From Longimicrobiales bacterium (GTDB lineage Bacteria; Gemmatimonadota; Gemmatimonadetes; Longimicrobiales; Gaopeijiaceae), in the NCBI GenBank assembly GCA_965116905.1, contig OZ220732.1:960001-1024000 (forward strand): DNA of 64,000 bases, read 5' to 3'. A program made the position numbers and the translations under genes. Below are positions 46,170-60,278 of the stretch, piece after piece. A model generated the notes under the pieces. The model did no database searches. It saw only the letters and a list, made by a program, of their open reading frames with translations, and was not told the origin of the DNA. Within the stretch, counting starts at the first letter, position 1, and each line of letters begins with the position of its first letter.

Positions 46170-49100
46170 CTAGTGGAAAAATCGCCCTCGCCCCACGAAC
46201 GACTCTGCCGAATCGCCACCCGGCGTCCCCAGCTCGTCAAGCCAGTCGTTCAGCGAGGTCACCCGCTCGGCGATCACGTGGATCACCCCGTCGACCTTCT
46301 GGACCTTGCCGCGGCAGAGCATCAGCCGCGCGGTGAGGGTGTCGCGGCGCTGGTTCTCGTAGATGGACGGGAAGACGACCAGGTTGGCGGTGCCGGTCTC
46401 GTCCTCCAGGGTGACGAACATCACGATCCCTTTCCCGGGGCGCTGCCGGGTCAGGACGATTCCCGCGACGACGGCCCGGTCTCCGTCGGACAGCCCCTCG
46501 AGACCCTCCGCGGAAAGCACGCCCCGCTCGTTCAGGCGCCGGCGCAACAGCGCAACCGGGTGGTGCTTGAGAGACAGGCCCGTGGTCCGGTAGTCTGCGG
46601 CCACCTGTTCGCCGGCGGACATGGCAGGGAGCGCCGCGTGATCGTTGCCGCCCGGATCGCCCTCCACCGATTCGAACAGCGGCAGCGGCCCCGCTTCGCT
46701 CAGCGCCCGCACCGCCCAGGCGGCCTGGCGGCGGTCCAGCCCCGTCGAGGTGAAGGCGTCGGCGGCGGCCAGACGAGTCAGGACCGCTGACGGAAGGCCC
46801 GTTTGCCGCCACAGGTCGAGGGGCGAGCGGTAGGCGGGGGCGGAAGCCGAGGTCGAGCGGGCAGCGGTCGGGTGGATCGCGAACAGCCGGCCGGCCGTCA
46901 CCTGCTCGGCGTCCTTCTCTTTCAAGCCGCGGACCTGGCGAAGGCCGAGGCGAAGGGCGAGGGGGCCGTCGGCGGTCGGCTCCAGCGTGCAGTCCCACTC
47001 CGAGTGGTTCACGTCCGCCGGGCGCACCTCGACACCGTGGTCGCGGGCGTCCCGCACGATCTGCGCCGGCGCGTAGAAGCCCATCGGCTGGCTGTTCAGG
47101 AGCGCGCAGGCGAAGACTTCCGGATAGTGGCACTTCAGCCATGACGAGACGTAGGCGAGGTGGGCGAAGCTGGCCGCGTGGCTTTCGGGGAAGCCGTATT
47201 CGCCGAAGCCCTCGATCTGCCGGAAGCAGCGTTCGGCGAATTCGCGGTCGTAGCCGCGGTCGGTCATGCCGTCGATGAACTTGTCGCGAAAACAGTGGAC
47301 CGTACCCGGACTGCGGAAGCTGGCCATGGCACGCCGCAGCTGGTCGGCCTCGGCGGGGGAGAAGCCGGCCGCGACGATGGCGATCCGCATGACCTGTTCC
47401 TGGAAGAGGGGCACGCCAAGGGTCTTTTCCAGCACCTGGCGCAGCTCTTCGGACGGGTATTCGACGGGCTCGAGCCCCTGACGCCGACGCAGGTAGGGAT
47501 GGACCATGTCGCCCTGGATCGGCCCCGGCCGCACGATCGCCACCTCGATCACGAGGTCGTAGAAGGTCGATGGCTTCAGCCTCGGCAGCATCGCCATCTG
47601 GGCCCGGCTCTCGATCTGGAAAACCCCGACCGTGTCCGCCCGCTGAATCATCGCATACGTGGCCGGGTCTTCGTGCGGTACGCTCTCAAGCGTGTAGCGA
47701 AGGCCGTACTTCTCCTCCAGCAGGGCGAAGGCCTTGCGGATGCACGAGAGCATCCCGAGCCCGAGCACGTCGACCTTGATCAGTCCCAGCGCCTCCAGGT
47801 CGTCCTTGTTCCACTCGATGACCGTGCGGTCCTCCATGGCCGCGTTCTCGATGGGAACGATCTCGCACAGTGGCCCGCGTGATATCACGAAGCCGCCGGT
47901 GTGTTGGGACAGGTGTCGGGGAAATCCGCACAGCTCGCGGGCCAGCTTCATGGTGAGCGCCAGACGCCGGTCGGAGGGATTGAAGCCCTCCTCGCGGGCC
48001 CGTTCCTCGTCCACCGGACTCGATCGCCATGAGACCATGGACAGCAGCCGCCCGATCACGTCCTCGCTCAGACCCATGGCCTTGCCCACGTCGCGCAACG
48101 CGCTCCTGGCACGGTAGGTGATGACCGTCGCGGTCAGCCCGGCCCGGTTGCGTCCGTACTTGCCGTAGATGTACTGGATGACCTCTTCGCGGCGCTCGTG
48201 CTCGAAGTCGACGTCGATGTCGGGCACCTCGTTCCGCTCGACGGAGATGAAGCGTTCGAAGAGCAGGTCGATCTGCGCGGGGTCGACGGATGTGACGCCC
48301 AGGCAGTAGCACACCGCGGAGTTGGCGGCCGAGCCGCGTCCCTGGCAGAGGATGTCCAGCTCGCGCGCCTTCTTCACGATGTCCTCGACGGTGAGGAAGT
48401 AGGGCTCGTAGTCCAGCTGCGCGATGAGCGCGAGTTCGTGTTCGATCGTCGCGCGCACCCCGGGCGGAATGCCGTCCGGGTAGCGCTTGGCGGCGCCCGC
48501 CCAGGTCAGTGCCGCCAGCGTCTCGCGGGGGGTGCGGCCGTCTTCGGCGACCTCGTCGGGGTACTCGTAGCGCAGTTCGGCCAGGGAGAAACGGCAGCGT
48601 TCGGCGATCGCGACGGTGTTGGCGAGGGCGTCCGGGTGGTTTCGGAAGAGCCGGGCGAGTTCGGCGCGGGGCTTGAGGTGCCGCTCGGCGTTGGCCTCCA
48701 GGCGCCAGCCGGCGTTGTCGATGGTACAGTGCTCGCGGACGCAGGTGAGCGTGTCGTGAAGTCGTCGCCGGGCGGGATCGTGCTGGTGGATGTCGCCGGT
48801 GGCGACCAGGGGGACGCCGTGCGCGGCGGCGAGGTCGGCGAGGCGGGCCAGGCGGCGGTCGTCATCGCCGCGGTGGTAATGGGTGGCGGCGAGGTGGAGG
48901 GGGGCGGCGAGGCGGTCGCGGTACCAGGCGAGGTCGTCGGCGAAGTCGTCGCCGGGCGGGACGGGCGGGACGGCGATGAACACGTGGCCTGTGGGGTCGG
49001 CGGCCGCGGCCACGTCCGCCCGGGTGAGATGGCATTCTCCCTTGGGTGCGCGCCGGCGTCCCGTGGTGATCAGGCGGCAGAGGGCGCCGTAACCGTGCCG

Positions 49101-49358
49101 GGTGGTGGGGAGGCAGAGCAGGCTGGGGCCGTCGCCGAGATCGAGGCGGGCGCCGGGGATGAAGTGGAGACCGGTGCGCTGTGCGGCCTCGTGGGCGCGC
49201 ACAACCCCGGCCAGCGTGTTGCGGTCGGTGAGCGCGAGGGCGCGGTAGCCCAGTTCGGCAGCGCGCTCGACCATCTCCTCGGGGTGGGAGGCGCCCCTCA
49301 GGAAGGAGAAGTTGCTGGTGACCTGGAGTTCGGCGTAGGCGGTGGCGTAGGCGGTCAC
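46170..49358 (-). CDS. dnaE2: Error-prone DNA polymerase III alpha (DnaE2/ImuC)
   Basis: SNFSFLRGASHPEE, QGRGSAANS, PDIDVD, YGFPESHA, LNSQPMGFY, C-terminal RFFH. Confidence 0.96.
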   Translation of the reverse strand: MTAYATAYAELQVTSNFSFLRGASHPEEMVERAAELGYRALALTDRNTLAGVVRAHEAAQRTGLHFIPGARLDLGDGPSLLCLPTTRHGYGALCRLITTGRRRAPKGECHLTRADVAAAADPTGHVFIAVPPVPPGDDFADDLAWYRDRLAAPLHLAATHYHRGDDDRRLARLADLAAAHGVPLVATGDIHQHDPARRRLHDTLTCVREHCTIDNAGWRLEANAERHLKPRAELARLFRNHPDALANTVAIAERCRFSLAELRYEYPDEVAEDGRTPRETLAALTWAGAAKRYPDGIPPGVRATIEHELALIAQLDYEPYFLTVEDIVKKARELDILCQGRGSAANSAVCYCLGVTSVDPAQIDLLFERFISVERNEVPDIDVDFEHERREEVIQYIYGKYGRNRAGLTATVITYRARSALRDVGKAMGLSEDVIGRLLSMVSWRSSPVDEERAREEGFNPSDRRLALTMKLARELCGFPRHLSQHTGGFVISRGPLCEIVPIENAAMEDRTVIEWNKDDLEALGLIKVDVLGLGMLSCIRKAFALLEEKYGLRYTLESVPHEDPATYAMIQRADTVGVFQIESRAQMAMLPRLKPSTFYDLVIEVAIVRPGPIQGDMVHPYLRRRQGLEPVEYPSEELRQVLEKTLGVPLFQEQVMRIAIVAAGFSPAEADQLRRAMASFRSPGTVHCFRDKFIDGMTDRGYDREFAERCFRQIEGFGEYGFPESHAASFAHLAYVSSWLKCHYPEVFACALLNSQPMGFYAPAQIVRDARDHGVEVRPADVNHSEWDCTLEPTADGPLALRLGLRQVRGLKEKDAEQVTAGRLFAIHPTAARSTSASAPAYRSPLDLWRQTGLPSAVLTRLAAADAFTSTGLDRRQAAWAVRALSEAGPLPLFESVEGDPGGNDHAALPAMSAGEQVAADYRTTGLSLKHHPVALLRRRLNERGVLSAEGLEGLSDGDRAVVAGIVLTRQRPGKGIVMFVTLEDETGTANLVVFPSIYENQRRDTLTARLMLCRGKVQKVDGVIHVIAERVTSLNDWLDELGTPGGDSAESFVGRGRFFH

Positions 49359-50992
49359 GCGAAAACCCCATGCAGGAACCAGCGCGGCCCGCTCCCCTCC
49401 CGGAACAGCCAGTAGCGGCGACCCGCTTCATCCACGACCAGGTAGTAGTCGCGGGACGGAGCCTCCTCACGCCACCACTCGCACTCCAGCCGCTCGGGCC
49501 CTTCCACCGCGCGCACCTGGTGGAGCCGCCCCTGCCGGTGAAAGCCTCGCAACCGGCGACGCGAATCACTGTTGCTCGAGGTGCGATCCGGGACCTCGTC
49601 ACCGGTCGTGGCGGGAGGTGGCCCGCCGTTTTCCGCGATGACGACATTCACCGGCTCCGGAGGCGAAAGCAGGCGCAGCGGCCGCAGGCGATCCTCCGGC
49701 CAGTTCGCGACCGATCCGGGTTGCGCGGCGGCCCATCCCGCCGCCCGCTCCGGCAGCCAGCTCTGACGCGGCACCGGCCGCCCGATGCGGCCGAAGCCGA
49801 AGCGGTTCCCCAGCCGGTCGAGAAGATCCGCCAGTTCCTCCTCATCGGCGGCCCGGTATCCCCCCGCGGTCTCGCCGGAGCAGTCGATCTGAAGTTCGTC
49901 GACGGTCTCGACCACGTCGGCGGCCAGAACGATCTCGTCGATCCCGAAGCCGGGCTCGACCTGCTCCAGCTTCTCGGCGAACAGGCCCATGAGAGGCCTC
50001 TTCCGGCGCAGCGGACGACTGGTGCCGATGGTCACGGTCCGCCTACCGCCGTCCACCCGGTTGCAGGTGAGGTGCAGCCGTCGTGCACCCTCGCCGGACC
50101 GGCCGAGCCCCAGACAGAGATCGTCCAGCAGCCCGTCGAGCGCCGCACGCAGATCCGCCGGTCTGGAGATCGGTTCGGCGAAAGCACGGTGGGCCTCGCG
50201 CGGGGACAGGGGCCGCAGCGGCTCGATCGGTTCGTCGATGATCCCCAGGGCCTGCTCAAGCCGCCTGACCGGTTCCATCCCGAAGCGCCGGATAAGTTCA
50301 ACGGATTTTATGACAAATAGTGCGGAGATTTTGTCCAGCCCGAAGGAAGCAAGCCCGTCCGCCACATCGGCGCTCAGACGCAGGGCGGCTACGGGCAGTT
50401 CGGCCAGCGCATCCCTCAGGCCGGACGGCCCGGCGCCGGCCGGTGCCACGGCCGGATCCTCGGCGCCGTAGTGCGCCAACGCCCACGCGGCTCCGGGAGT
50501 GTCGGCGAGGGCCAGCCGCACGGTCAGCCCGAAGTCTTCCAGCGCGGCCCGCAGCGACGCCGTGAGCGCCTCCTCGCCGCCGAAGAGACGCGTGCAGCCG
50601 GCGATGTCGAGGAAGAGCGTGTCCACGCCGTCGGGCATGACGCGCGGCGTGAAGCGGTCCGCCCACCGGGCGAGTTGCTCCAGCGCCAGGGCGTCGTCCG
50701 CGGGGTCGGCGGGGCGGACGACGACATCGGGTACGACGGCCCGCGCGTCGGCCAGCGGCATGCCGTGGTTGAGGCCCGCACGGGTGGCGAGCGGGTTGGC
50801 CGCGCCGATGATCAGCCGGTTGCGGCTCTCCGCGACGGTGACAAAGGGATGGGTGCGCGCCTCGGGCCGGTGCCGGGCGAGCCTCTCGGTGGGCCACCAG
50901 GGAAGCCAGGCGGCGAGGATGCGCCGGGAGATGCGCGGGCCCCATCGGGCAGGCGCACCGGATTTGATCGAGGCCGTTCGTTCACGAGACAT
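49355..50992 (-). CDS. imuB: ImuB (inactive Y-family polymerase)
   Basis: GMPLADARA, RFTPRV...LFLDIAGC, LADTPGAAWALA, GPERLECEWW...RDYY; coupled to dnaE2. Confidence 0.93.
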   Translation of the reverse strand: MSRERTASIKSGAPARWGPRISRRILAAWLPWWPTERLARHRPEARTHPFVTVAESRNRLIIGAANPLATRAGLNHGMPLADARAVVPDVVVRPADPADDALALEQLARWADRFTPRVMPDGVDTLFLDIAGCTRLFGGEEALTASLRAALEDFGLTVRLALADTPGAAWALAHYGAEDPAVAPAGAGPSGLRDALAELPVAALRLSADVADGLASFGLDKISALFVIKSVELIRRFGMEPVRRLEQALGIIDEPIEPLRPLSPREAHRAFAEPISRPADLRAALDGLLDDLCLGLGRSGEGARRLHLTCNRVDGGRRTVTIGTSRPLRRKRPLMGLFAEKLEQVEPGFGIDEIVLAADVVETVDELQIDCSGETAGGYRAADEEELADLLDRLGNRFGFGRIGRPVPRQSWLPERAAGWAAAQPGSVANWPEDRLRPLRLLSPPEPVNVVIAENGGPPPATTGDEVPDRTSSNSDSRRRLRGFHRQGRLHQVRAVEGPERLECEWWREEAPSRDYYLVVDEAGRRYWLFREGSGPRWFLHGVFA

Positions 50993-51001
50993 GGCCCGTG
51001 T

Positions 51002-51030
51002 AGGATAACCGAATATATACCGAAGATCAA
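51002..51030 (-). promoter_or_regulatory. imuB promoter with candidate damage-response operator
   Basis: TTGATC-N17-TATCCT, 9 nt to the ATG; spacer TTCGGTATATATTCGGT. Confidence 0.7.
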
Positions 51031-51078
51031 ATTTCCGGGCCATGGACGATTCCCTTGACCGAGCCCGTCCCATCCCGA

Positions 51079-53056
51079 CATGCCGGTGTCCCTGGATTTG
51101 CCGCGGAAACGCGGGACTCACGCGGCCTGGGCGGGCGGTGGGGGATTGTCCTCGCGTCTGCGGCGGTCCGGAACCTCGGGTCTGCGGTCGGTTCTGCGCT
51201 CGGCCATGCCGGCCTGCTCCACCGCCTCGCTTGGCTCGCCGGCCTGCTCCACTGCCTTGTCGGGCTCGCCGGCCGCCTCGCCCGCCTCCGGTGCCTGCTC
51301 CACCGCCTCCCTCGCCGCGGCCTCGATCTCCCATGGGATCGCCGAGTCCAGGAGTCGTGCCGCTCCGTTGTACATCTCGCCGGGGGCGAGCGGGGGCGGG
51401 GGCGGCAGAGGCAGCTTCGGCTCCGGCAGCGGGGGCGCGCTCGCGACCGCCGCCCCGCTGCGCGCGAAGAACACCGCCCGGCCGCGCCGGTCGAGCGCCA
51501 TCCGGACCCTGCCCTCGTGCACGAGCCGGTGATGCCGCCGGCACAGCAGCACCGTGTTCGCCAGACTCGTCTCGCCGCCGTCGGCCCAGTGCCGGACATG
51601 ATGCGCCTCGGTGAACCGGCTCCCGCAGGCCGGGTACCGGCAGCCCCGGTCCCGTTCCTCGAGCGCCCGGCGGAGGTGCGGCGGGATGGTCCGCGTCTTC
51701 CGCCCCACGCTGACGACCTTGCCCTCCCGGTGCAGCATCCCCACCAGCGACGCATCGCACGCCATGCGCCGCGACGTCTCGGCGCTCACCCGCACCCCGT
51801 CGAGCTCCGACCGGCCCCCCTCGCCGTCCTCCTCCAGCGTGGCCATCTCGGTGTGCACCGTCACCTGGTACCGCTCGGCCCGCGTCCCGCTCGGCGTCGC
51901 CTCCGCGTCCCCTTCCCCCGCGTCGACCCCAGTTCCCGCGTCGGCCCCCTCTCTCGCGTCGGCCCCCGCCCCCAGCCCCGCCGCCAGCGCCCGCTCGGCG
52001 ACGAGCCCCATCGCATCGGCCCTGCGCTGGCGGCTCCGTGGCCGCGCATCGGGGTCCTCGCCCCGGTACAGCGCGTCGCTCGCGGCCTCGATGGCCCGCA
52101 TCAGCACGGCACCCGCCTCGGGCTCGAGCCGGCCCCGCACCACGTACGTCCCGTCCGCGGCGATGACGACCGACAACGTGCGGGCCCGGTGCCGGGCCTC
52201 TTCGGCCCCGATCTCGCCGTCGCGCGACAGGTGCTTCACCCCCCGCACCATGCGCTCCACCGCCGCGGCCGAGCCCTTGCGGGCGTAGTCGAGGAGTTCG
52301 GCCTCGGTCCGGGACGTGGCCACCCGGGTGATGGCCCGGGCCTTGGCGTAGGAGAGCCGCCCGGCCTTCATCTCGGCCGAGGTGGCGGGCAGGTCCTCGA
52401 GCGCATGCGCGACGCGCACGTTCTCGCGGCAGGTGGCGACCGTGCGCCCGGTCCGCCAGGCGAGCCACTCGGCGCAGGAGTCGAAGGCGTCGGCCCACCC
52501 CTCGCGGCGGTCGAACTCGGCGACGAGGGTGAGCATCTCGTGGGTGGCGATGTTGATCCGGGCGGCGAGTTCGGCGATCCGCTCTCCGAGTTGCGTGGTG
52601 TTCATGTGATCCTCCAGGTTCAAGTCCGGCAACGGCTTATGTGTGGTGAGACTGTCGCACCTGAAATTTAACCATGGATTTTTCGGCCTTCCGTACGGCC
52701 GCAGGACGCACGATCTCGGGGCAAAACGACGTGGAAGGGCCGCCGAAGCCCGTTCGCCCGTCAGCGGGCCGCCGGTGGCTCCTGGGGGCCACTCGCCAGC
52801 GGGTCCCGGACCTCGCCGTAACCGCCATTTCAAAACCCGTCTATAGCAGGATCGGCCTGTGTTTCGACGGTTTGGGACAGGGGGGGTTGGAGAGCGCGAT
52901 CCCGGGATCGGTCCGGGGGGATGGGCTGCGGAGATGGGCCAATGGGCTAACGGATGTTGCCTCAGTCTGGCCTGCGGCTGGCCGGGGCACCGAGGTGGCG
53001 GCTGCCGCGGATCGCCCCCCCCACGTTTCCGCGGCAAATCCAGGGACACCGGCATG
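51079..53056. mobile_element. Candidate transposase-less element: DUF222-HNH gene bounded by 33-bp perfect inverted repeats
   Basis: 51079-51111 CATGCCGGTGTCCCTGGATTTGCCGCGGAAACG is the exact reverse complement of 53024-53056; extends to 37 bp with one mismatch. Confidence 0.6.
51118..52605 (-). CDS. DUF222-like domain + HNH endonuclease
   Basis: GGAGG RBS; SCAEWLAWRTG, GRLSYAKARAITRVA, QRRADAM, RRMACDA, RDRGCRYPAC...AHHVRHWADGGETSLANTVLLCRRHHRLVH. Confidence 0.9.
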   Translation of the reverse strand: MNTTQLGERIAELAARINIATHEMLTLVAEFDRREGWADAFDSCAEWLAWRTGRTVATCRENVRVAHALEDLPATSAEMKAGRLSYAKARAITRVATSRTEAELLDYARKGSAAAVERMVRGVKHLSRDGEIGAEEARHRARTLSVVIAADGTYVVRGRLEPEAGAVLMRAIEAASDALYRGEDPDARPRSRQRRADAMGLVAERALAAGLGAGADAREGADAGTGVDAGEGDAEATPSGTRAERYQVTVHTEMATLEEDGEGGRSELDGVRVSAETSRRMACDASLVGMLHREGKVVSVGRKTRTIPPHLRRALEERDRGCRYPACGSRFTEAHHVRHWADGGETSLANTVLLCRRHHRLVHEGRVRMALDRRGRAVFFARSGAAVASAPPLPEPKLPLPPPPPLAPGEMYNGAARLLDSAIPWEIEAAAREAVEQAPEAGEAAGEPDKAVEQAGEPSEAVEQAGMAERRTDRRPEVPDRRRREDNPPPPAQAA

Positions 53057-53130
53057 CTCCTATGGGCGCCCGCCCGCCGACGCGCCGCTCCCGCCGCCGC
53101 TCCCGCCCGCCGACACGCCCACCCTTGGAC

Positions 53131-53176
53131 GCGCTCCCCCCGCCAGCGCAACGGCGCTCCCCCCGTCAGCGCAACG
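53131..53176. repeat. 23-bp tandem duplication in low-complexity DNA right of the element
   Basis: GCGCTCCCCCCG(C/T)CAGCGCAACG x2. Confidence 0.8.
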
Positions 53177-53583
53177 GCGACCCACCAACCAAATCGACCG
53201 ACCGCCAGGTCCACCGGCCAGCATGCCGTTGCAAGCCAGAATGTGACGAGCCCGCCCTCTTCCGAATCGACGAGACCACCCTGACGTAACGTTAGGGTTA
53301 GCGGAAAACAAATCTCTCGCGGACCCGGAACACCTGTCCATGACTTCTCCAGGGCCTGATCCGGATCGACGACCTGGCGCACGCGCCCCTGAAGTCTGCG
53401 GATCGGGCGGGGTCAGCGTCCCGTTGCGGCCCCGGCCTGCCGTTGCAACATTTGTTCCAGGCTTCCGGCTGGGCTGCATCGCCCTGGGCTGCATCGCCGG
53501 CCTGCCCGGCACTGGACCGGGGACCGGGGAGCGGGAGCCGGACGCCGGACCCGCGACCCGACATACGGAGCGGACCGCATGCC

Positions 53584-54603
53584 ATGAAGAAGAGGAGCCG
53601 CGCACCGAGCCCGTTTGGCATTGCGGCGCTGGACCTGTTTGCGTCGGCCCTCGGCGCCTTCATTCTGATCGCGGTCGTCATCTTCCCGATGATCGGGGAG
53701 GCCGTGCCGGACATTCCGGCCCCGCCCGCGCCGACCGTCATGGCGGTTCCAACGCCCGACTCGGTCATATGCCCGGTGTGCCCTACATGCCCGGTCGTCG
53801 CCGCCGTCGTGGAGCCGATCGCCTGCCCGGTGTGCCCCACATGCCCGGTTCCGGAACCCGTGCCGGAGACGATCTGCCCGGCAGTTGCCGTACCCGACCC
53901 CGTGGAGTGCCCGGTCTGTCCCACGGTGCCTGCCACGGTGCCTGCACCGGTCATCTGCCCGGAGCCCGCCCCCGCGCCCATCCAGGTAAACGCTCCGCAG
54001 TTCCGGTTCCCCCATCTCGACATCATCATCGCGCTGGACGTCACCAACAGCATGGGCGGGCAGGTCGCCAACCTCAAGGCGGAGGTCGAGCAGCTTGCCG
54101 TCCTTCTGAACCGGATCTCGCCCAGCTTCGGCATCGGGATGGTGGCGTTCGGAGATCGCCGGTGGGAGAGCCCGCTGTTCCTGTTCCCGTTGCGGGAGCT
54201 CTCCGGTCCGGCCGCGAACCGCGATGCGTTCCGCACGTTCGTGAACGGCCTGTCGGTCGGCATGGGAACCGGAAGAGGCAGCAACCCCGACAGTCCCGAA
54301 GCCTTCTACGACGCGCTTTCGGCGGCGTCCCGCATGACCTGGCGGCCGCGATCCGAGCGGAGGGTCGTCGTTCTGGTGACCGACAACCCGGCATACAGCG
54401 ACGAGATCGACCGATCCATACAGGTCGCGACCGGCATCGGACGCCCCGAAGGGCATCGGGTCTCCACGGTCTACGTCAGGACGGGGGGCACGAACACCGC
54501 CACGGAGGAGTTTCTCCAGAGCGTCGCCGACGCCGGCGGTGGTCAGTACGTGCGGGACGTAGGAGGCTCGCTGACGGTCAACCTGCTTCTGTCCCTTTTC
54601 TGA
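53584..54603 (+). CDS. vWA-domain protein with MotB/ExbD-like N-terminal TM and Cys-Pro-rich linker
   Basis: AALDLFASALGAFILIAVVIFP TM with Asp; CPVCPTCP repeats; MIDAS DVTNSM, VLVTD. Confidence 0.85.
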   Translation: MKKRSRAPSPFGIAALDLFASALGAFILIAVVIFPMIGEAVPDIPAPPAPTVMAVPTPDSVICPVCPTCPVVAAVVEPIACPVCPTCPVPEPVPETICPAVAVPDPVECPVCPTVPATVPAPVICPEPAPAPIQVNAPQFRFPHLDIIIALDVTNSMGGQVANLKAEVEQLAVLLNRISPSFGIGMVAFGDRRWESPLFLFPLRELSGPAANRDAFRTFVNGLSVGMGTGRGSNPDSPEAFYDALSAASRMTWRPRSERRVVVLVTDNPAYSDEIDRSIQVATGIGRPEGHRVSTVYVRTGGTNTATEEFLQSVADAGGGQYVRDVGGSLTVNLLLSLF

Positions 54604-54679
54604 CCGGTCCCGCCTGGCTGGCGGCGCGGGCGCGGACCCGTTGGCCCCTGGCCGACGCCGACATCGGGAGCGGGCCCCG

Positions 54680-55594
54680 CTACCCCCGGCCGGAACTCCG
54701 CTCCTCGTGCAGCCTGTTCGACAGATTGCCGAGGCAGTACTGGCCGATCCTGTTCAGGGCACCCTCTTCCTTCTCCTGAATGATGTGCATCGCGAACATC
54801 AGCACCGCCGATTGCAGCAGGGCGAGCAGGGTCGTGTAGAACGCAACCCCGAGGTCTCCCGTCAACTGCTCCATCATCTCGGGTCCGATCGACCCCTCCA
54901 CAATGCTGGCGCCCGCGAACATGAACCCGGCGCTACGCATCGCGAACGCGATCCCCAATACGGTTCCGATGAAGCCGAGCGTCGGTATCAGCCAGACGAC
55001 GTAGCGCAGCATGTTGTACCGCAACTCGATTTCGTGCTGGTAGAGTTCGAGCGACCCGTTGGTCATCGAGTTGACCTGGTCCACCGACCCGCTGTTGCGG
55101 AACTGCAGAAGCGCGCCGGTCAGCAGGCGTTGCAGCAGGTACCGCTTCTCCGGGTCGGACTCGACCACCCGTTGGTAGATCGGGGCCAGGTCGCGTTTGC
55201 GCAGAATGGTCTCGTCGTCCTCAGGCAAAAGCCCCAGGCGAACCTGCTCGCCTTCCCGGCGGCCGGCAAGATGGCGCACCACCAGCTCTCCGGCGGCCGC
55301 GCAGAAGGCGAGCCACATCACGTTCTGTATGGTGAACGGGTAGGGGAAGATCCGGGTGTTCCTGTCGACCAGCAGTTCGGCGGCCATGCTGTTGTCGCCG
55401 GCCGGGAACACGTACGACAGAGCCCCCACGAGGACGATCCCGGCCAGCAGCGAGACGAAAAGGGTCACGGCCCGGAACGGTACCTGCTCGCCCCTCTCCG
55501 CGGGCCGCTGCGAGGTGCGCGTCCACTCCGAAGTCGACCCCGAAGGCTCCGAAGTCGACCCCGAAGGCGCGCCCGCGTTGTCGCTGTCGCTCAT
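54680..55594 (-). CDS. MotA/TolQ/ExbB proton-channel family protein
   Basis: WLIPTLGFIGTVLGI and LGVAFYTTLLAL; ATGA overlap with the LRR gene. Confidence 0.9.
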   Translation of the reverse strand: MSDSDNAGAPSGSTSEPSGSTSEWTRTSQRPAERGEQVPFRAVTLFVSLLAGIVLVGALSYVFPAGDNSMAAELLVDRNTRIFPYPFTIQNVMWLAFCAAAGELVVRHLAGRREGEQVRLGLLPEDDETILRKRDLAPIYQRVVESDPEKRYLLQRLLTGALLQFRNSGSVDQVNSMTNGSLELYQHEIELRYNMLRYVVWLIPTLGFIGTVLGIAFAMRSAGFMFAGASIVEGSIGPEMMEQLTGDLGVAFYTTLLALLQSAVLMFAMHIIQEKEEGALNRIGQYCLGNLSNRLHEERSSGRG

Positions 55595-57036
55595 GGCCGC
55601 CCGCACTCCGGAAGGCGAACCCCGCCCAGTTGGGGATTGATGCCGGACTCGAAGCGCATCAGCGGCTTCGGTATGCATCCCGACAGGCGATTGTTGCTCA
55701 GCGTCAACCGTTTCAGGCTGGTCAGGTTGGCCAGTTCGCCAGGTATCTGCCCGGAAAGCTGGTTGCCATTGAGGGCGAGGAGTTCGAGTTGCCGCAGTCT
55801 GCCGAGCTCGGGCGGTATCCGGCCGGCGATCTGCGTGCGGGACAGGCGCAGCCGCTTGAGGCTCGCCAGGTTTCCGAGTTCGGGAGGGATGATCCCGGTC
55901 AGCGGGTTGTTGTACAGGTGCAGGTCCTCAAGGCTCGATATCGCACCCAGTTCGGCCGGAATTTGACCCGAAAGCTGGTTGTTCTCGAGGAACAGCGCCT
56001 TGAGTTTGCGCAGCGAGCCCAACTCGGCCGGAATCGCGCCGGAAAGCTGGTTTCCACCCAGGTTGAGGAGCTCAATCTCCGCCAGGCGCGCGAGGCGGGT
56101 GGGAATCACGCCCCCCAGATTGCGCGCGTTGAGATCGAGCCCCACTACGTTGTCGCCCCGAGACCGAACACCCGTCCAGGATCGCCGGTTCAGGGCGAGG
56201 CGCCAGTTCAGGTCGCCGGTGGTCCCGGCCAGATCGTTTCTCGCGGCGAGCAGCAGCTGGTCGTCGGTGAGCCGCTCTTCGGTGCGTCGCCGCGCCGCCT
56301 CCATGGTCTCGGCCTGTCGCTGCTGCCGGTTCCCCAGCCGCTCGGCTGCGGTCCGGCGCGCCTCGTCCAGCCGCGCCGCCTCCGCCTGACGCGCCTGCTC
56401 CGCCAGGCGGGCTTCCTCCGCCAGCCGTTCCTGCTCGGCCAGGCGGGCTTCCTCGGCCAGGCGGGCTTCCTCGGCAATCCGCTCCATCTCGCGGCGGGCC
56501 TCGTCGGCGAGCCGCTCCTCCTCGGCCAGACGGGCCTCTTCCGCCAGCCGCCGCTCTTCCTCACGCCGGGCGGCGTCGCGGCGGGCCTGTTCCGTGACCC
56601 GCTCCTCGCGAGCGATCCGGCGTTCTTCGGCCAGCCGCTCTGCCTCGGCCTCCAGCTCGTCCAGGCGGCGCTCCTCCTCCGCCTGCCTCTCCGCCTCCCG
56701 GCCCGCTGCCAGCAGTTCCGACAGGCTGGTGCGGTCCAGGTATCCGGTGGCCTCGATACCCCGGTCGGTCTGCCATTCGCGGAGTCCTTGACGGGCTTCG
56801 GGTTCCAGCACGCCGTCGGCGTCGCCGGAGTAGCGGCCTTCGGCGGAGAGTCCCATTTCCACCAGCGCCACGACATCGGTGCCAAGCCCGAGCCGGGCCT
56901 CCAGGGCGGCGGCGCGCTCCTCGGGCGTGAGGGTCCGGTTCCGTGCCACGAACACCATGAGGGCAGCTGCGCCCACGATGATGGTGACGCCGGCGGCATA
57001 TGAGAGACGACGAAGAGCTGCCCCGGGGCGGCGCAT
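55591..57036 (-). CDS. TM + peptidoglycan-binding domain + EARLAE coiled coil + plant-type LRR protein
   Basis: YSGDADGVL...REWQ...ATGYLD; (EEARLA)n; about 7 LxxLxLxxNxLSGxIPxELG repeats. Confidence 0.85.
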   Translation of the reverse strand: MRRPGAALRRLSYAAGVTIIVGAAALMVFVARNRTLTPEERAAALEARLGLGTDVVALVEMGLSAEGRYSGDADGVLEPEARQGLREWQTDRGIEATGYLDRTSLSELLAAGREAERQAEEERRLDELEAEAERLAEERRIAREERVTEQARRDAARREEERRLAEEARLAEEERLADEARREMERIAEEARLAEEARLAEQERLAEEARLAEQARQAEAARLDEARRTAAERLGNRQQRQAETMEAARRRTEERLTDDQLLLAARNDLAGTTGDLNWRLALNRRSWTGVRSRGDNVVGLDLNARNLGGVIPTRLARLAEIELLNLGGNQLSGAIPAELGSLRKLKALFLENNQLSGQIPAELGAISSLEDLHLYNNPLTGIIPPELGNLASLKRLRLSRTQIAGRIPPELGRLRQLELLALNGNQLSGQIPGELANLTSLKRLTLSNNRLSGCIPKPLMRFESGINPQLGGVRLPECGRP

Positions 57037-58106
57037 CACCGGCTCCAGACGAGACCGATCTCGGTACGGCCCAGGGCGCGCCTGATGAACAGATCCGGTC
57101 CGCCCTCGGCCACTGTGGTTCCCTGCCGCGACGGCAGCGCGGTCACGCGCGAGATCGCCTCGATCTCGGACTTCTTCCTCGACCCGAGCACCCAATCGAC
57201 CGCTCCCCAGACTCCGAGCACGCTCCCCACACCGATGAACCAGTTGTTTGCGGTTTCGGTCCGGTCCCGCCTGTGCACCGCGGACAGGTACTGCCACTCC
57301 GTGTCGTAGTCCGCCCGATCCGGAACGCCCAGCCAGGGCAGCCACCTCACCGTCGCGTAGGAGCCGCCCGCCATGATGGTGCCCCAGAGGAACTTCCTCT
57401 TCCCCGACTCGCGCCTCGCGGTGGCGTCCCTGTATTGCTCCTCGAGAGCCGGACTGGCCAGCGTGGGGAGCTCTCCTTCCATCGTCTCCATGTCACGCCT
57501 TCCCAGGATGTAGTCGGCGGCACCCCATGAGAGGAGGCCGGCACCACCCAGCAGGACGGCATTCCTGACGGTCCTCGCCGTGGCGTGTCTGTCAACGGCG
57601 GCTTGATGGGAGGCCGAGTCGGCATAGGCGTCCTCGTCTCCCGCCTCGAACACGATCCCGGTTGTAGCAATGGCGACGACGGCCAGCGTCCCTCCCCAGA
57701 ACCACCTTTTCAGGCCCGACGACCGACGCGCCTTCGATCTCTCGTATTGCGCGTGGATGTCCGGGATCACGGACCCCGTCGCTGGGGGCTGCGCTCCGGC
57801 GGACACGGTTCCCACGACCTCGACTTCCGTAGCGAGGACATATCCGATCAGGTCGTCTTCGCCGGGCTGGCCGGGTATCGACACGATATGGTACGGACCC
57901 GACTCTCCGATCCAGTCCAGCGTCGCACCGGCCGCCAGGTTGGCGACGACGGGGCTGGAATCGGACGGATCGAGCCGGACGGCCGCGCCATTGCCGAGCG
58001 CCCTGACCTGTTGGGCCGAAGCGAGCCCGTGTCCGATAGCGGGTGCTGCGAAGGAGACTCCGAGAAACATGAGGCCAGCGCCGACCAGGCCGTGCTTCAG
58101 CTTCAT
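57036..58106 (-). CDS. Secreted SH3-domain protein with duplicated hydrophobic hairpin
   Basis: Signal peptide; VRLDPSDSSPVVANL...GYV SH3b-like segment; two internal repeats; TGATG overlap with the LRR gene. Confidence 0.7.
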   Translation of the reverse strand: MKLKHGLVGAGLMFLGVSFAAPAIGHGLASAQQVRALGNGAAVRLDPSDSSPVVANLAAGATLDWIGESGPYHIVSIPGQPGEDDLIGYVLATEVEVVGTVSAGAQPPATGSVIPDIHAQYERSKARRSSGLKRWFWGGTLAVVAIATTGIVFEAGDEDAYADSASHQAAVDRHATARTVRNAVLLGGAGLLSWGAADYILGRRDMETMEGELPTLASPALEEQYRDATARRESGKRKFLWGTIMAGGSYATVRWLPWLGVPDRADYDTEWQYLSAVHRRDRTETANNWFIGVGSVLGVWGAVDWVLGSRKKSEIEAISRVTALPSRQGTTVAEGGPDLFIRRALGRTEIGLVWSR

Positions 58107-58299
58107 TCTCGCTATTTGCTTCCTCGCGCTGTCTGATCCGCCACCGGCCGGCGGACCAGTCCCGCTCTCGCGGGCGGTTGGTTGCTTGGTCGAACTTAGC
58201 GGATCGGCCCGATGTGGTCTAGCAGCCCGTGGACAAAATCCCCCCGGCATTCGAGCGGCGATGCATCCGGGCCGGATGCTCGGCCTCACCTCCTCGCGC

Positions 58300-58317
58300 T
58301 GTAAACCAAAGTTTACA
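58300..58317. promoter_or_regulatory. Perfect palindromic operator-like site
   Basis: TGTAAAC-CAAA-GTTTACA in the AT-rich divergent intergenic region. Confidence 0.55.
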
Positions 58318-58527
58318 ATATGTCATGTTTACTATACGTCTTGGTTTGTCGGGCCCGCACTCTGCGTTGCTCCTCGGGCCCGTAGCGCTGCTACTGGCCC
58401 TTCGTCGCGCCTTGCCGGCCCGGCGCCTCACCGCTCTCGGTGCTCGGGCGGCTTTGTCCACGGACTGCTAGCATTGGAATCGGGCGGTTTCTCACCGTTG
58501 AAGGGATCTCACAACCCGCGTTAGGAC

Positions 58528-59094
58528 ATGACCTCACACGGAACCTCGGCCACGACCTGGCTGGCGCTGCTTCGCGGCATCAATGTCGGCGGCAGGAACG
58601 TGATCCGGATGGCCGAACTGCGGGAGTGCTTCGAGTCGGAAGGTTTCCGCGATGTCGTGACATACATCCAGAGCGGGAACGTGATCTTCCGTTCGGTGTC
58701 GTCCGGGCCCGGTGCACTGACGACGCGGATCGAAGGGATGCTGGCGGGGGCGTTCGACTACAGGGCGAAAGTCACGTTGCGGTCACGCGGGCAGATGCGG
58801 GCGGTGGTCGACGAAGCGCCGGAGGGGTTCGGCGTCCGGCCGGATGTCTACCGTTACGATGTCCTTTTCCTGATGCCTCCGCTGATGGCGGCCGACGCCA
58901 TGGAGCATGTCGGCACCAGGCCCGGCGTCGACGAAGCCTGGGCGGGCGAAGGTGTTCTCTACTTCTCCCGACTCATCGCCAGGGCATCCCGGAGCCACCT
59001 CGGCCGTATCGCCTCGATGCCCGTGTACCAGAGCATGACGATCCGCAACTGGAAGACGACGAGCCGGCTGCTGCAGCTCATGGAGGGGCACTAG
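58528..59094 (+). CDS. DUF1697-family protein
   Basis: ALLRGINVGG, TYIQSGNVIF, TIRNWKT. Confidence 0.92.
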   Translation: MTSHGTSATTWLALLRGINVGGRNVIRMAELRECFESEGFRDVVTYIQSGNVIFRSVSSGPGALTTRIEGMLAGAFDYRAKVTLRSRGQMRAVVDEAPEGFGVRPDVYRYDVLFLMPPLMAADAMEHVGTRPGVDEAWAGEGVLYFSRLIARASRSHLGRIASMPVYQSMTIRNWKTTSRLLQLMEGH

Positions 59095-59756
59095 CAGCCC
59101 GGACTGCCGAGAGTGAGGGTCCACTCCGCCGGCCTTCCGCCGCGGCAGTGCTGCAGGGCGACGCGCCACTTCGTCCCGTCTGGAGCCGCCGTGACCCGCC
59201 AGCGGCTGACGGCGGCCCGCACCCCGGCCTCGGCTCCGCGCGACAGCATCAGTCCCAGCACGCCCGTCCCCTCGGCGGCCAGCATCAGGCGGCGCCCCGC
59301 TGCCAGGCCGGTCCCCCCGGTCTCGGCCACTACCCCCCGCACGGCCCGGCAGCGAAGCGCTTCCTCCATGGCCCACAGCATGTCGTCCCGGCGGCGCAGC
59401 CCCGACACGACCAGCAGCTGTCCCGCGCGGATCCCGTAGCGGACCAGCCCGGGAGCGTACAGGTCGTCGTCCCGGGCGAGCCACAGCAGCGCGCCGCGCC
59501 CGCCGCGCCTGCCGCGCGAGCCGCCGCATGCACGCGCCAGCAGAGCCGCGCAGAACCCGGTGGCGGCCTCATCTCCCGCCACCTCGTGGATGCAGCCCAG
59601 GCGCAGCCCGCCACCAGGGAGGGCGTGATCGATCTCGGGTACTCCCAACGGCAAACGCGGTTGCTCCGGCGATCCGGCTTCCTCGATTCCGCGGATCGCC
59701 CGGCGGAGCGCTTTCGCGGTGTCCCGCCGGCGCCGGTCCAAGGGTAAAGTGACCAT
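59091..59756 (-). CDS. imuA: ImuA (RecA/SulA-like mutagenesis protein)
   Basis: LGVPEIDHALPGGGL...IHEV, LYAPGL, LWAMEEALRC, RRLMLAAE, RWRV. Confidence 0.9.
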   Translation of the reverse strand: MVTLPLDRRRRDTAKALRRAIRGIEEAGSPEQPRLPLGVPEIDHALPGGGLRLGCIHEVAGDEAATGFCAALLARACGGSRGRRGGRGALLWLARDDDLYAPGLVRYGIRAGQLLVVSGLRRRDDMLWAMEEALRCRAVRGVVAETGGTGLAAGRRLMLAAEGTGVLGLMLSRGAEAGVRAAVSRWRVTAAPDGTKWRVALQHCRGGRPAEWTLTLGSPGC

Positions 59757-59765
59757 GGACCGGGC

Positions 59766-59794
59766 AAGATACCGAATAAATACCGTAATAGCAA
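59766..59794 (-). promoter_or_regulatory. imuA promoter with candidate damage-response operator
   Basis: TTGCTA-N17-TATCTT, 9 nt to the ATG; contains CGGTATTTATTCGGT. Confidence 0.7.
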
Positions 59795-59855: not shown

Positions 59856-60278
59856 ATGTTGATCAGAGTTCTGCTGGGCGTGGCCCTGACGTTCACCTCG
59901 GGCTGCTCCCTCGCCCTTGTGAAGGGACCGCCGGACTTCATTCCCGCCGACGAGCCGGTGCCCCCTGAGTCGTGCACGATCGAGAGGGCGCTTCCCTTCC
60001 TGGACGCCGTCGGCGCCGGAGCCTTTCTCATCACGGCGCTCACCAGCTCCGACGGGGATGCCGTGAGGTTTGGCGCGGTCGGTAGCGGTGCGCTCGGCTT
60101 CTCGTCCTATACGGGCTTTCGCAGAGTGAAGCAGTGCAGGGAACGCATGTTCCAGATGCTGGAAACGCCTTCCCCCGATACCCTGTTCCCGAGATCGCTG
60201 GTCGAGATCGCCGATCCGCTTCTGGGTGCACCGCGGCCGTTCCGCGTCAACGACGGATCGCCGGACCGGTCCCGGTAG
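59856..60278 (+). CDS. Hypothetical lipoprotein
   Basis: GGGAG RBS, TSGC lipobox, hydrophobic hairpin flanked by a Cys pair. Confidence 0.65.
   Translation: MLIRVLLGVALTFTSGCSLALVKGPPDFIPADEPVPPESCTIERALPFLDAVGAGAFLITALTSSDGDAVRFGAVGSGALGFSSYTGFRRVKQCRERMFQMLETPSPDTLFPRSLVEIADPLLGAPRPFRVNDGSPDRSR

Follow-up and report, generated by a model that had tools for sequence, protein, structure and literature searches.

Why should two genes that stand apart on a chromosome carry almost the same short repeat inside their promoters? The question is raised by a window of 64,000 nucleotides (nt), the whole stretch of DNA analysed, from the genome of a Longimicrobiales (Gemmatimonadota) bacterium (4.2 Mb, a single contig, 97% complete), in which imuA and the pair imuB-dnaE2 of a mutagenesis cassette are preceded by twin direct repeats. 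An earlier note on this DNA had proposed the shared motif as a candidate new SOS box. From sequence comparison we infer, at about nine chances in ten, that the twin repeats are operators of the host LexA repressor, with binding and induction as predicted properties.

Repeats and predicted promoters at imuA and imuB

Both 15-mers of the earlier note were recovered at their positions, ACCGAATATATACCG at 51008-51022 and ACCGAATAAATACCG at 59771-59785, with identity at 14 of 15 bases. Their description as a direct repeat with a period of 11 base pairs (bp) stood, while the 15-mer frame proved slightly off register against the conserved unit, a 16-mer direct repeat T(T/A)CGG-N6-TTCGG at 51009-51024 and 59772-59787. 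The frame CGGT-N5-TTCGGT was dropped, having 14 matches in the genome and none at lexA or recA, both of which are recovered with TTCGG-N6-TTCGG; the T after CGG, formerly counted as part of the motif, falls outside the consensus of the scoring matrix described below. The pattern CGGT[AT]7CGGT occurs at just these two places in the whole 4.2-Mb genome, and a shared 15-mer with at most one mismatch was seen in 223 of 200,000 pairs of upstream regions drawn at random (0.11%, repeats included).

On the minus strand, the predicted LexA operator of imuB-dnaE2 (TTCGG-TATATA-TTCGG, 51009..51024), which is conserved in the genus, and that of imuA (TACGG-TATTTA-TTCGG, 59772..59787) each take up 16 of the 17 spacer bases of a predicted sigma70-type promoter. 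The imuB promoter (51002..51030, minus strand) consists of a -35 TTGATC at 51030-51025 and a -10 TATCCT at 51007-51002, the imuA promoter (59766..59794, minus strand) of a -35 TTGCTA at 59794-59789 and a -10 TATCTT at 59771-59766. The layout claimed for both genes was confirmed, with a 17-nt spacer and 9 nt between the -10 and the ATG (50992 for imuB, 59756 for imuA), and TTG...TATnnT-N9-ATG is conserved in the genus relatives of both promoters.

For the genus, the 30 best imuA and the 30 best imuB loci were compared, one of the latter having too little upstream DNA. Of the 30 imuA loci, 29 have the ATG 15-16 nt past the box; of the 29 imuB loci, 22 have it at 16 nt. Genome-wide, the distance from -10 to ATG peaks at 5-9 nt, so that very short leaders would be ordinary in this host, and near-leaderless mRNAs, which had been taken as implied by the promoter layout, are plausible from these short predicted distances. 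TAnnnT stands 5-9 nt ahead of many ATGs throughout the genome, often with TTG 16-18 nt farther up, and this points to frequent leaderless transcripts. On the opposite strand to imuA, a gene without Pfam match (59856-60278, plus strand) begins 68 nt away from the imuA box and might be co-regulated with it.

The box across the genome and its predicted binder

An SOS-type operator is predicted to recur at lexA and recA, and the earlier note had named both genes for a check. Two copies of CCGAA-N6-CCGAA were found upstream of the host lexA and one copy of TTCGT-N6-TTCGG upstream of the host recA which, together with the 11-bp repeat in the promoter spacer, supports a LexA operator. Among its relatives, where the 80 best lexA loci out of 539 found were kept, TTCG-N7-TTCG lies upstream of lexA in 80/80 and came first when spaced word pairs were counted without bias; most loci have two copies, one inside the promoter spacer and the other just downstream of the -10. 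The recA set (n = 50) comprised the 30 best-scoring loci and 20 picked across families, 43 of the same class and 7 of other classes; one genome, G156, is unpublished. With one mismatch at most and a spacer of 6, the box was present in 40/50 of the upstream regions, against 1-6/50 at nine other spacers and 10/500 in shuffles. Within the class the count is 40/43, and in 7/7 genomes from other Gemmatimonadota classes the TTCGG box is absent at recA, the TTCGC form being seen in none of them either.

Over the 4.2 Mb, a matrix trained solely on the lexA, recA and dnaE2 sites of other genomes ranked recA, a radical SAM gene of the PA0069 family, imuB, imuA and a short UvrC-like nuclease gene as sites 1-5, with 26.0 bits for imuB (rank 3) and 23.7 bits for imuA (rank 4). 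Two DUF222-HNH genes, two intragenic sites, both lexA sites and a cytosine methyltransferase gene hold the next ranks. Eleven of the 14 sites with at least 17 bits lie in non-coding DNA, compared with a non-coding share of 10.7% in the genome. The predicted regulon is therefore short, consisting of lexA, recA, imuA, imuB-dnaE2, the radical-SAM repair gene, the uvrC-like nuclease gene and two DUF222-HNH genes. A second DUF222-HNH family (positions 1145823 and 3587720 of the host contig C1, loci L246 and L245; 42% identity to that of the window) has its box 62 nt upstream. We take DUF222 to be the 13E12 family, and the box-bearing genes recall the LexA control of mycobacterial 13E12-family genes. 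Such genes are named as LexA targets in a passage of PMC3381160, and radical SAM and UvrC genes as SOS members in a passage of PMC8565304.

The predicted binder is LexA1 (C1 2293093-2293695), the sole S24 peptidase of the genome, which matches TIGR00498 above the cut-off, keeps the Ala-Gly cleavage site as well as the Ser and Lys, and shares 93-95% identity with proteins from assemblies of Longimicrobiales and Gemmatimonadota. No informative relatives of LexA1 came up among plasmids. Its recognition helix SLATVHEHL is unchanged in 80/80 relatives, Glu44 going with TTCGG in all 80. This Glu44 was aligned to Glu45 of a solved LexA of 202 amino acids (aa), a base-reading residue of E. coli LexA. 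Ten genomes of other Gemmatimonadota classes were searched for lexA, two without a match; the eight used (L231-L235, L238-L240) have Lys at helix position 44 in 8/8 and a TTCGC-type repeat (TTCGC-N6-TTCGC) in the promoter. A third set was formed by LexA-fusion loci related to the protein P0138 (80 metagenome loci, 56 including the LexA start, 47 distinct), in which Glu (19/20) and Gln (10/10) are paired with (T/C)TCGG repeats, and Phe (16/16) and His (1/1) with TTC(T/G)A repeats. The last box base follows LexA residue 44, from GG with Glu or Gln through GC with Lys to xA with Phe or His, a pairing that ties the box to LexA and makes one LexA-DNA contact testable by a point mutant. Side by side, the evidence thus comprises an autoregulation site at lexA, sites at recA and repair genes, overlap with predicted core promoters, and a cleavable LexA whose helix tracks the box.

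The fusion loci (L251-L330), likely from Patescibacteria, join LexA to methyltransferase-like domains, and a different helix residue goes with a different operator. Many of these operators adjoin a TGTGGATAA sequence, in our view a DnaA-box-like word.

A symmetric LexA dimer would not usually be expected on a direct repeat, and a TCGG core followed by TAnnnT resembles the mycobacterial PafBC promoter motif, so a different regulator could be thought to bind the repeat, be it a PafBC- or DriD-type activator with a WYL domain or some other protein that responds to damage, with LexA merely one target. We consider this improbable. A search of this single-contig genome, 97% complete, for WYL proteins gave 0 matches to PF13280, and the last box base changes with residue 44 of the LexA helix across lineages. 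Moreover, some recA and lexA promoters have the box in reverse, and at the second lexA site it follows the -10, as would suit a repressor but not an activator tied to one geometry. The same arrangement makes it more improbable still that the repeat belongs to the core promoter of stress genes, for example as an extended -10 or an alternative-sigma signature, even though the box abuts the -10 at imuA, imuB and lexA: its distance to the -10 varies, from 0 nt at imuA to 1 nt at imuB, both orientations occur, the second lexA copy lies beyond the -10, and TTG and TATnnT are conserved in their own right. Equally far-fetched, a second LexA-like protein (C1 about 3,061,600-3,062,300; L002:1465-2169, minus strand), whose LexA DNA-binding domain has a Glu in the corresponding place of its helix (TVSEHL), would be the binder alone or with LexA1, but it has no S24 peptidase match and hence no possible RecA-responsive self-cleavage, no box upstream in the stretch read, and no place in the top 45 matrix matches.

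If the twin repeats are operators of LexA1, a LexA dimer on TTCGG-N6-TTCGG, between the -35 and the -10, would block RNA polymerase and hold imuA and imuB-dnaE2 silent as long as DNA is undamaged. RecA filaments on single-stranded DNA would then bring about LexA cleavage and the release of near-leaderless imuA and imuB-dnaE2 transcripts, whose products would assemble into the ImuA-ImuB-DnaE2 mutasome for translesion synthesis.

Several results weigh against this. The earlier note had also pointed to uvrA and recN, and neither has a site within 250 nt of its rough gene start; nor have ruvB, ssb, uvrD, recQ and recF, and all seven genes reached no more than background scores. These repair genes were located by short signature patterns and a rough gene caller, and several patterns matched unrelated genes or nothing. 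The box is missing in 3/43 same-class recA regions and in 6/21 Gemmatimonadota dnaE2 loci, for which about 2 kb upstream were covered. The residue-44 pairing is drawn from a few related clades and not from independent events. In the window, ACCGAA-N5-ACCG with one mismatch is not enriched over shuffles (7 found, 5.6 expected). A consensus promoter scan listed neither promoter, each having 8/12 bases against a cut-off of 9, and both were accepted because of their conservation in the genus. Three sequencing runs (one sponge metatranscriptome and two of unstated kind) gave contigs alone, which covered 30/30 bins, the cover of the RNA run being flat.

A split cassette and its origin

All three genes of the cassette lie on the minus strand. 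imuA (59091..59756, 221 aa) matches NF033429 ImuA with an E-value of 2.8e-17 and 63 bits against a cut-off of 150, and has no Pfam match; relatives were found in 50/52 genus genomes. imuB (49355..50992, 545 aa) encodes a Y-family polymerase homologue (Pfam IMS, E 5e-18), whose best plasmid matches are alphaproteobacterial, with 37-41%. dnaE2, or imuC (46170..49358, 1062 aa), encodes an error-prone DNA polymerase (NF004225, 1438 bits against a cut-off of 939); it overlaps the imuB stop and is without a box of its own (best upstream score -5.4). ImuA, a Y-family ImuB and an error-prone DnaE2, the parts of a mutasome, thus occur together or split, and their relatives are annotated as ImuA, Y-family polymerase or error-prone polymerase.

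The imuA box is present in 29/30 genus imuA loci, host genome included, and imuB has its own box in 26/29 imuB loci, the other three having imuA immediately upstream. Two boxes would be required because insertions split imuA from imuB, leaving each part in need of its own promoter and operator. In some genomes dnaE2 is in turn detached from imuB and has its own module of promoter, box and ATG, clearly in L145, L150, L155 and L160 and probably in L139 and L158. The four clear modules are nearly the same as the imuB module, and this likeness, down to GGCC(C)ATG, suggests that they arose by copying.

The ImuB type of the window is found in 50/52 genus genomes, against 1/48 of the others sampled in the family. 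Over a core of 440 aa, DnaE2 identity lies at 81-90% within three genera in the family, does not exceed 57% elsewhere among 151 phylum genomes, and amounts to 66-67% with alphaproteobacterial plasmid enzymes. A quick mixture-model tree of 37 rows and a careful LG+G4 tree of 22 of those rows agree: the DnaE2 proteins of the window, G123 and G079 are nested among proteobacterial rows with a support of 100/98, and monophyly of all 13 Gemmatimonadota rows was rejected (p-AU 2.6e-5). As regards the promoters, GAAC-N7-GAAC or its reverse complement occurs in 6/8 alphaproteobacterial imuA promoters and CTGT-N8-ACAG in 2/2 betaproteobacterial cassettes, while the TTCGG box occurs in 0/10 proteobacterial imuA promoters and at 15/21 Gemmatimonadota dnaE2 loci. 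A Gemmatirosa plasmid gave 4 pattern matches against 5 control matches, and only the match before its dnaE2 locus was counted; in Gemmatirosa kalamazoonensis this box stands on plasmid 1, about 2.4 kb ahead of dnaE2.

From the tree placement, and from donor-type boxes elsewhere and TTCGG here, it is likely that the cassette came in from Proteobacteria, probably Alphaproteobacteria, and then exchanged the box of its donor for that of the host. Counting against so precise a source, the placement beside Alphaproteobacteria has a support of only 93/95 and all proteobacterial rows are plasmid-borne. The locus would be a record of an imported mutagenesis cassette adopting the host operator. More tentatively, and at what we would put somewhat below even odds, the observations may be joined into a single picture, in which a broad clade of LexA proteins (Gemmatimonadota, Patescibacteria and kin) uses a one-residue code at position 44 (Glu or Gln for TTCGG, Lys for TTCGC, Phe or His for TTC(T/G)A), the genus re-wired an imported alphaproteobacterial mutasome to the host box, and a 45-bp module of promoter, operator and ATG was copied before imuB and dnaE2 at each split by insertion. 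If this were true, the SOS boxes of uncultured phyla could be predicted from their LexA sequence and switched by one mutation.

The 8 kb between imuA and imuB in the window include a DUF222-HNH element and a 250-bp repeat. The former (51079..53056, minus strand, 2 kb) has 37-bp terminal inverted repeats that are 97% complementary, carries no box and ends about 50 bp ahead of the imuB -35. It was discarded as a source of the imuB promoter, its inverted repeat ending at 51079 and another full copy running on into unrelated DNA. Three more copies in the genome with 84-94% identity (C1 about 319-321 kb, 634-638 kb, split, and 4179-4181 kb) make it look recently mobile, no transposase being seen. 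The 250-bp repeat at 58215-58472 has 31-bp imperfect inverted ends and at least seven further copies of 82-91% identity; missing at this place in contigs of the three sequencing runs, it is likely a miniature mobile element. Genes for VWA, MotA/ExbB and peptidoglycan-binding LRR proteins (53584-56958) also lie between imuB and imuA and are matched by a block of paralogues at C1 about 3446-3448 kb.

Comparison with known LexA boxes and mutasomes

A literature search, most subscription journals being outside its scope, found no published LexA box of Gemmatimonadota, and 'Gemmatimonad' is not a word in PMC7739468 or PMC8565304. The box thus appears undescribed for Gemmatimonadota only, and to call it a new SOS box, as the earlier note did, was too strong, considering that the repeat also precedes the lexA fusions of likely Patescibacteria, a group with a cited direct-repeat motif. 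What is supplied is an SOS box and a short predicted regulon for a phylum without a box in the searchable literature; each theme has a precedent and the gain is accordingly moderate.

Direct-repeat LexA motifs are cited in a passage of PMC7739468 for Patescibacteria and, by the title of a reference, for Acidobacterium capsulatum. In our data, TTCGG-N6-TTCGG stands ahead of P0138, a LexA fusion. The 90% cluster of this protein, the sole cluster with a taxon name, has a member named Candidatus Paceibacterota, and the repeat lies before lexA in locus L251 (100% to P0138) and in 29/30 Glu/Gln fusion loci. Host and Patescibacteria share this repeat and the helix TVHEHL, but they belong to different phyla, and the LexA of the latter is fused to methyltransferases, unlike that of the host. 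The host box probably equals the one published for Patescibacteria or comes close to it.

The alphaproteobacterial LexA box is given as GTTC-N7-GTTC in a passage of PMC8565304; it is this box that the reference title reports for Acidobacterium capsulatum as well. It has in common with the host box the direct repeat, the TTC core, the period of 11 and the position before imuABC (6/8 plasmid cassettes). However, it needs a G before TTC in both halves, whereas the host matrix has G at 4% in the first half (mostly C/T) and at 44% in the second (mixed); neither window site has a G before TTC, and the host box has GG after it. The cassette of the window is alphaproteobacterial in type, yet it carries a TTCGG and not a GTTC box. 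For Balneolaeota, a validated direct-repeat LexA motif, TTACACATATTTTWTACATA, is described in a passage of PMC7739468. Its regulon takes in lexA, recA and translesion polymerases as well as a radical SAM gene and strongly resembles that predicted for the host, though half-site sequence and phylum differ.

LexA-regulated imuA-imuB-dnaE2 cassettes, contiguous or split, are known (PMC3901139, PMC3919608), including split ones with a box at each locus (a passage of PMC3901139), and passages of both sources describe in general the capture by LexA after acquisition and the horizontal spread of dnaE2. Our locus has the same three genes as these cassettes, for which the same passages give no Gemmatimonadota box, and adds, in a bacterial group that has seen little study, a solid further instance of an already known type of switch and not a new type; what sets it apart is that the likely import and the repeated splitting can be traced here within one genus.

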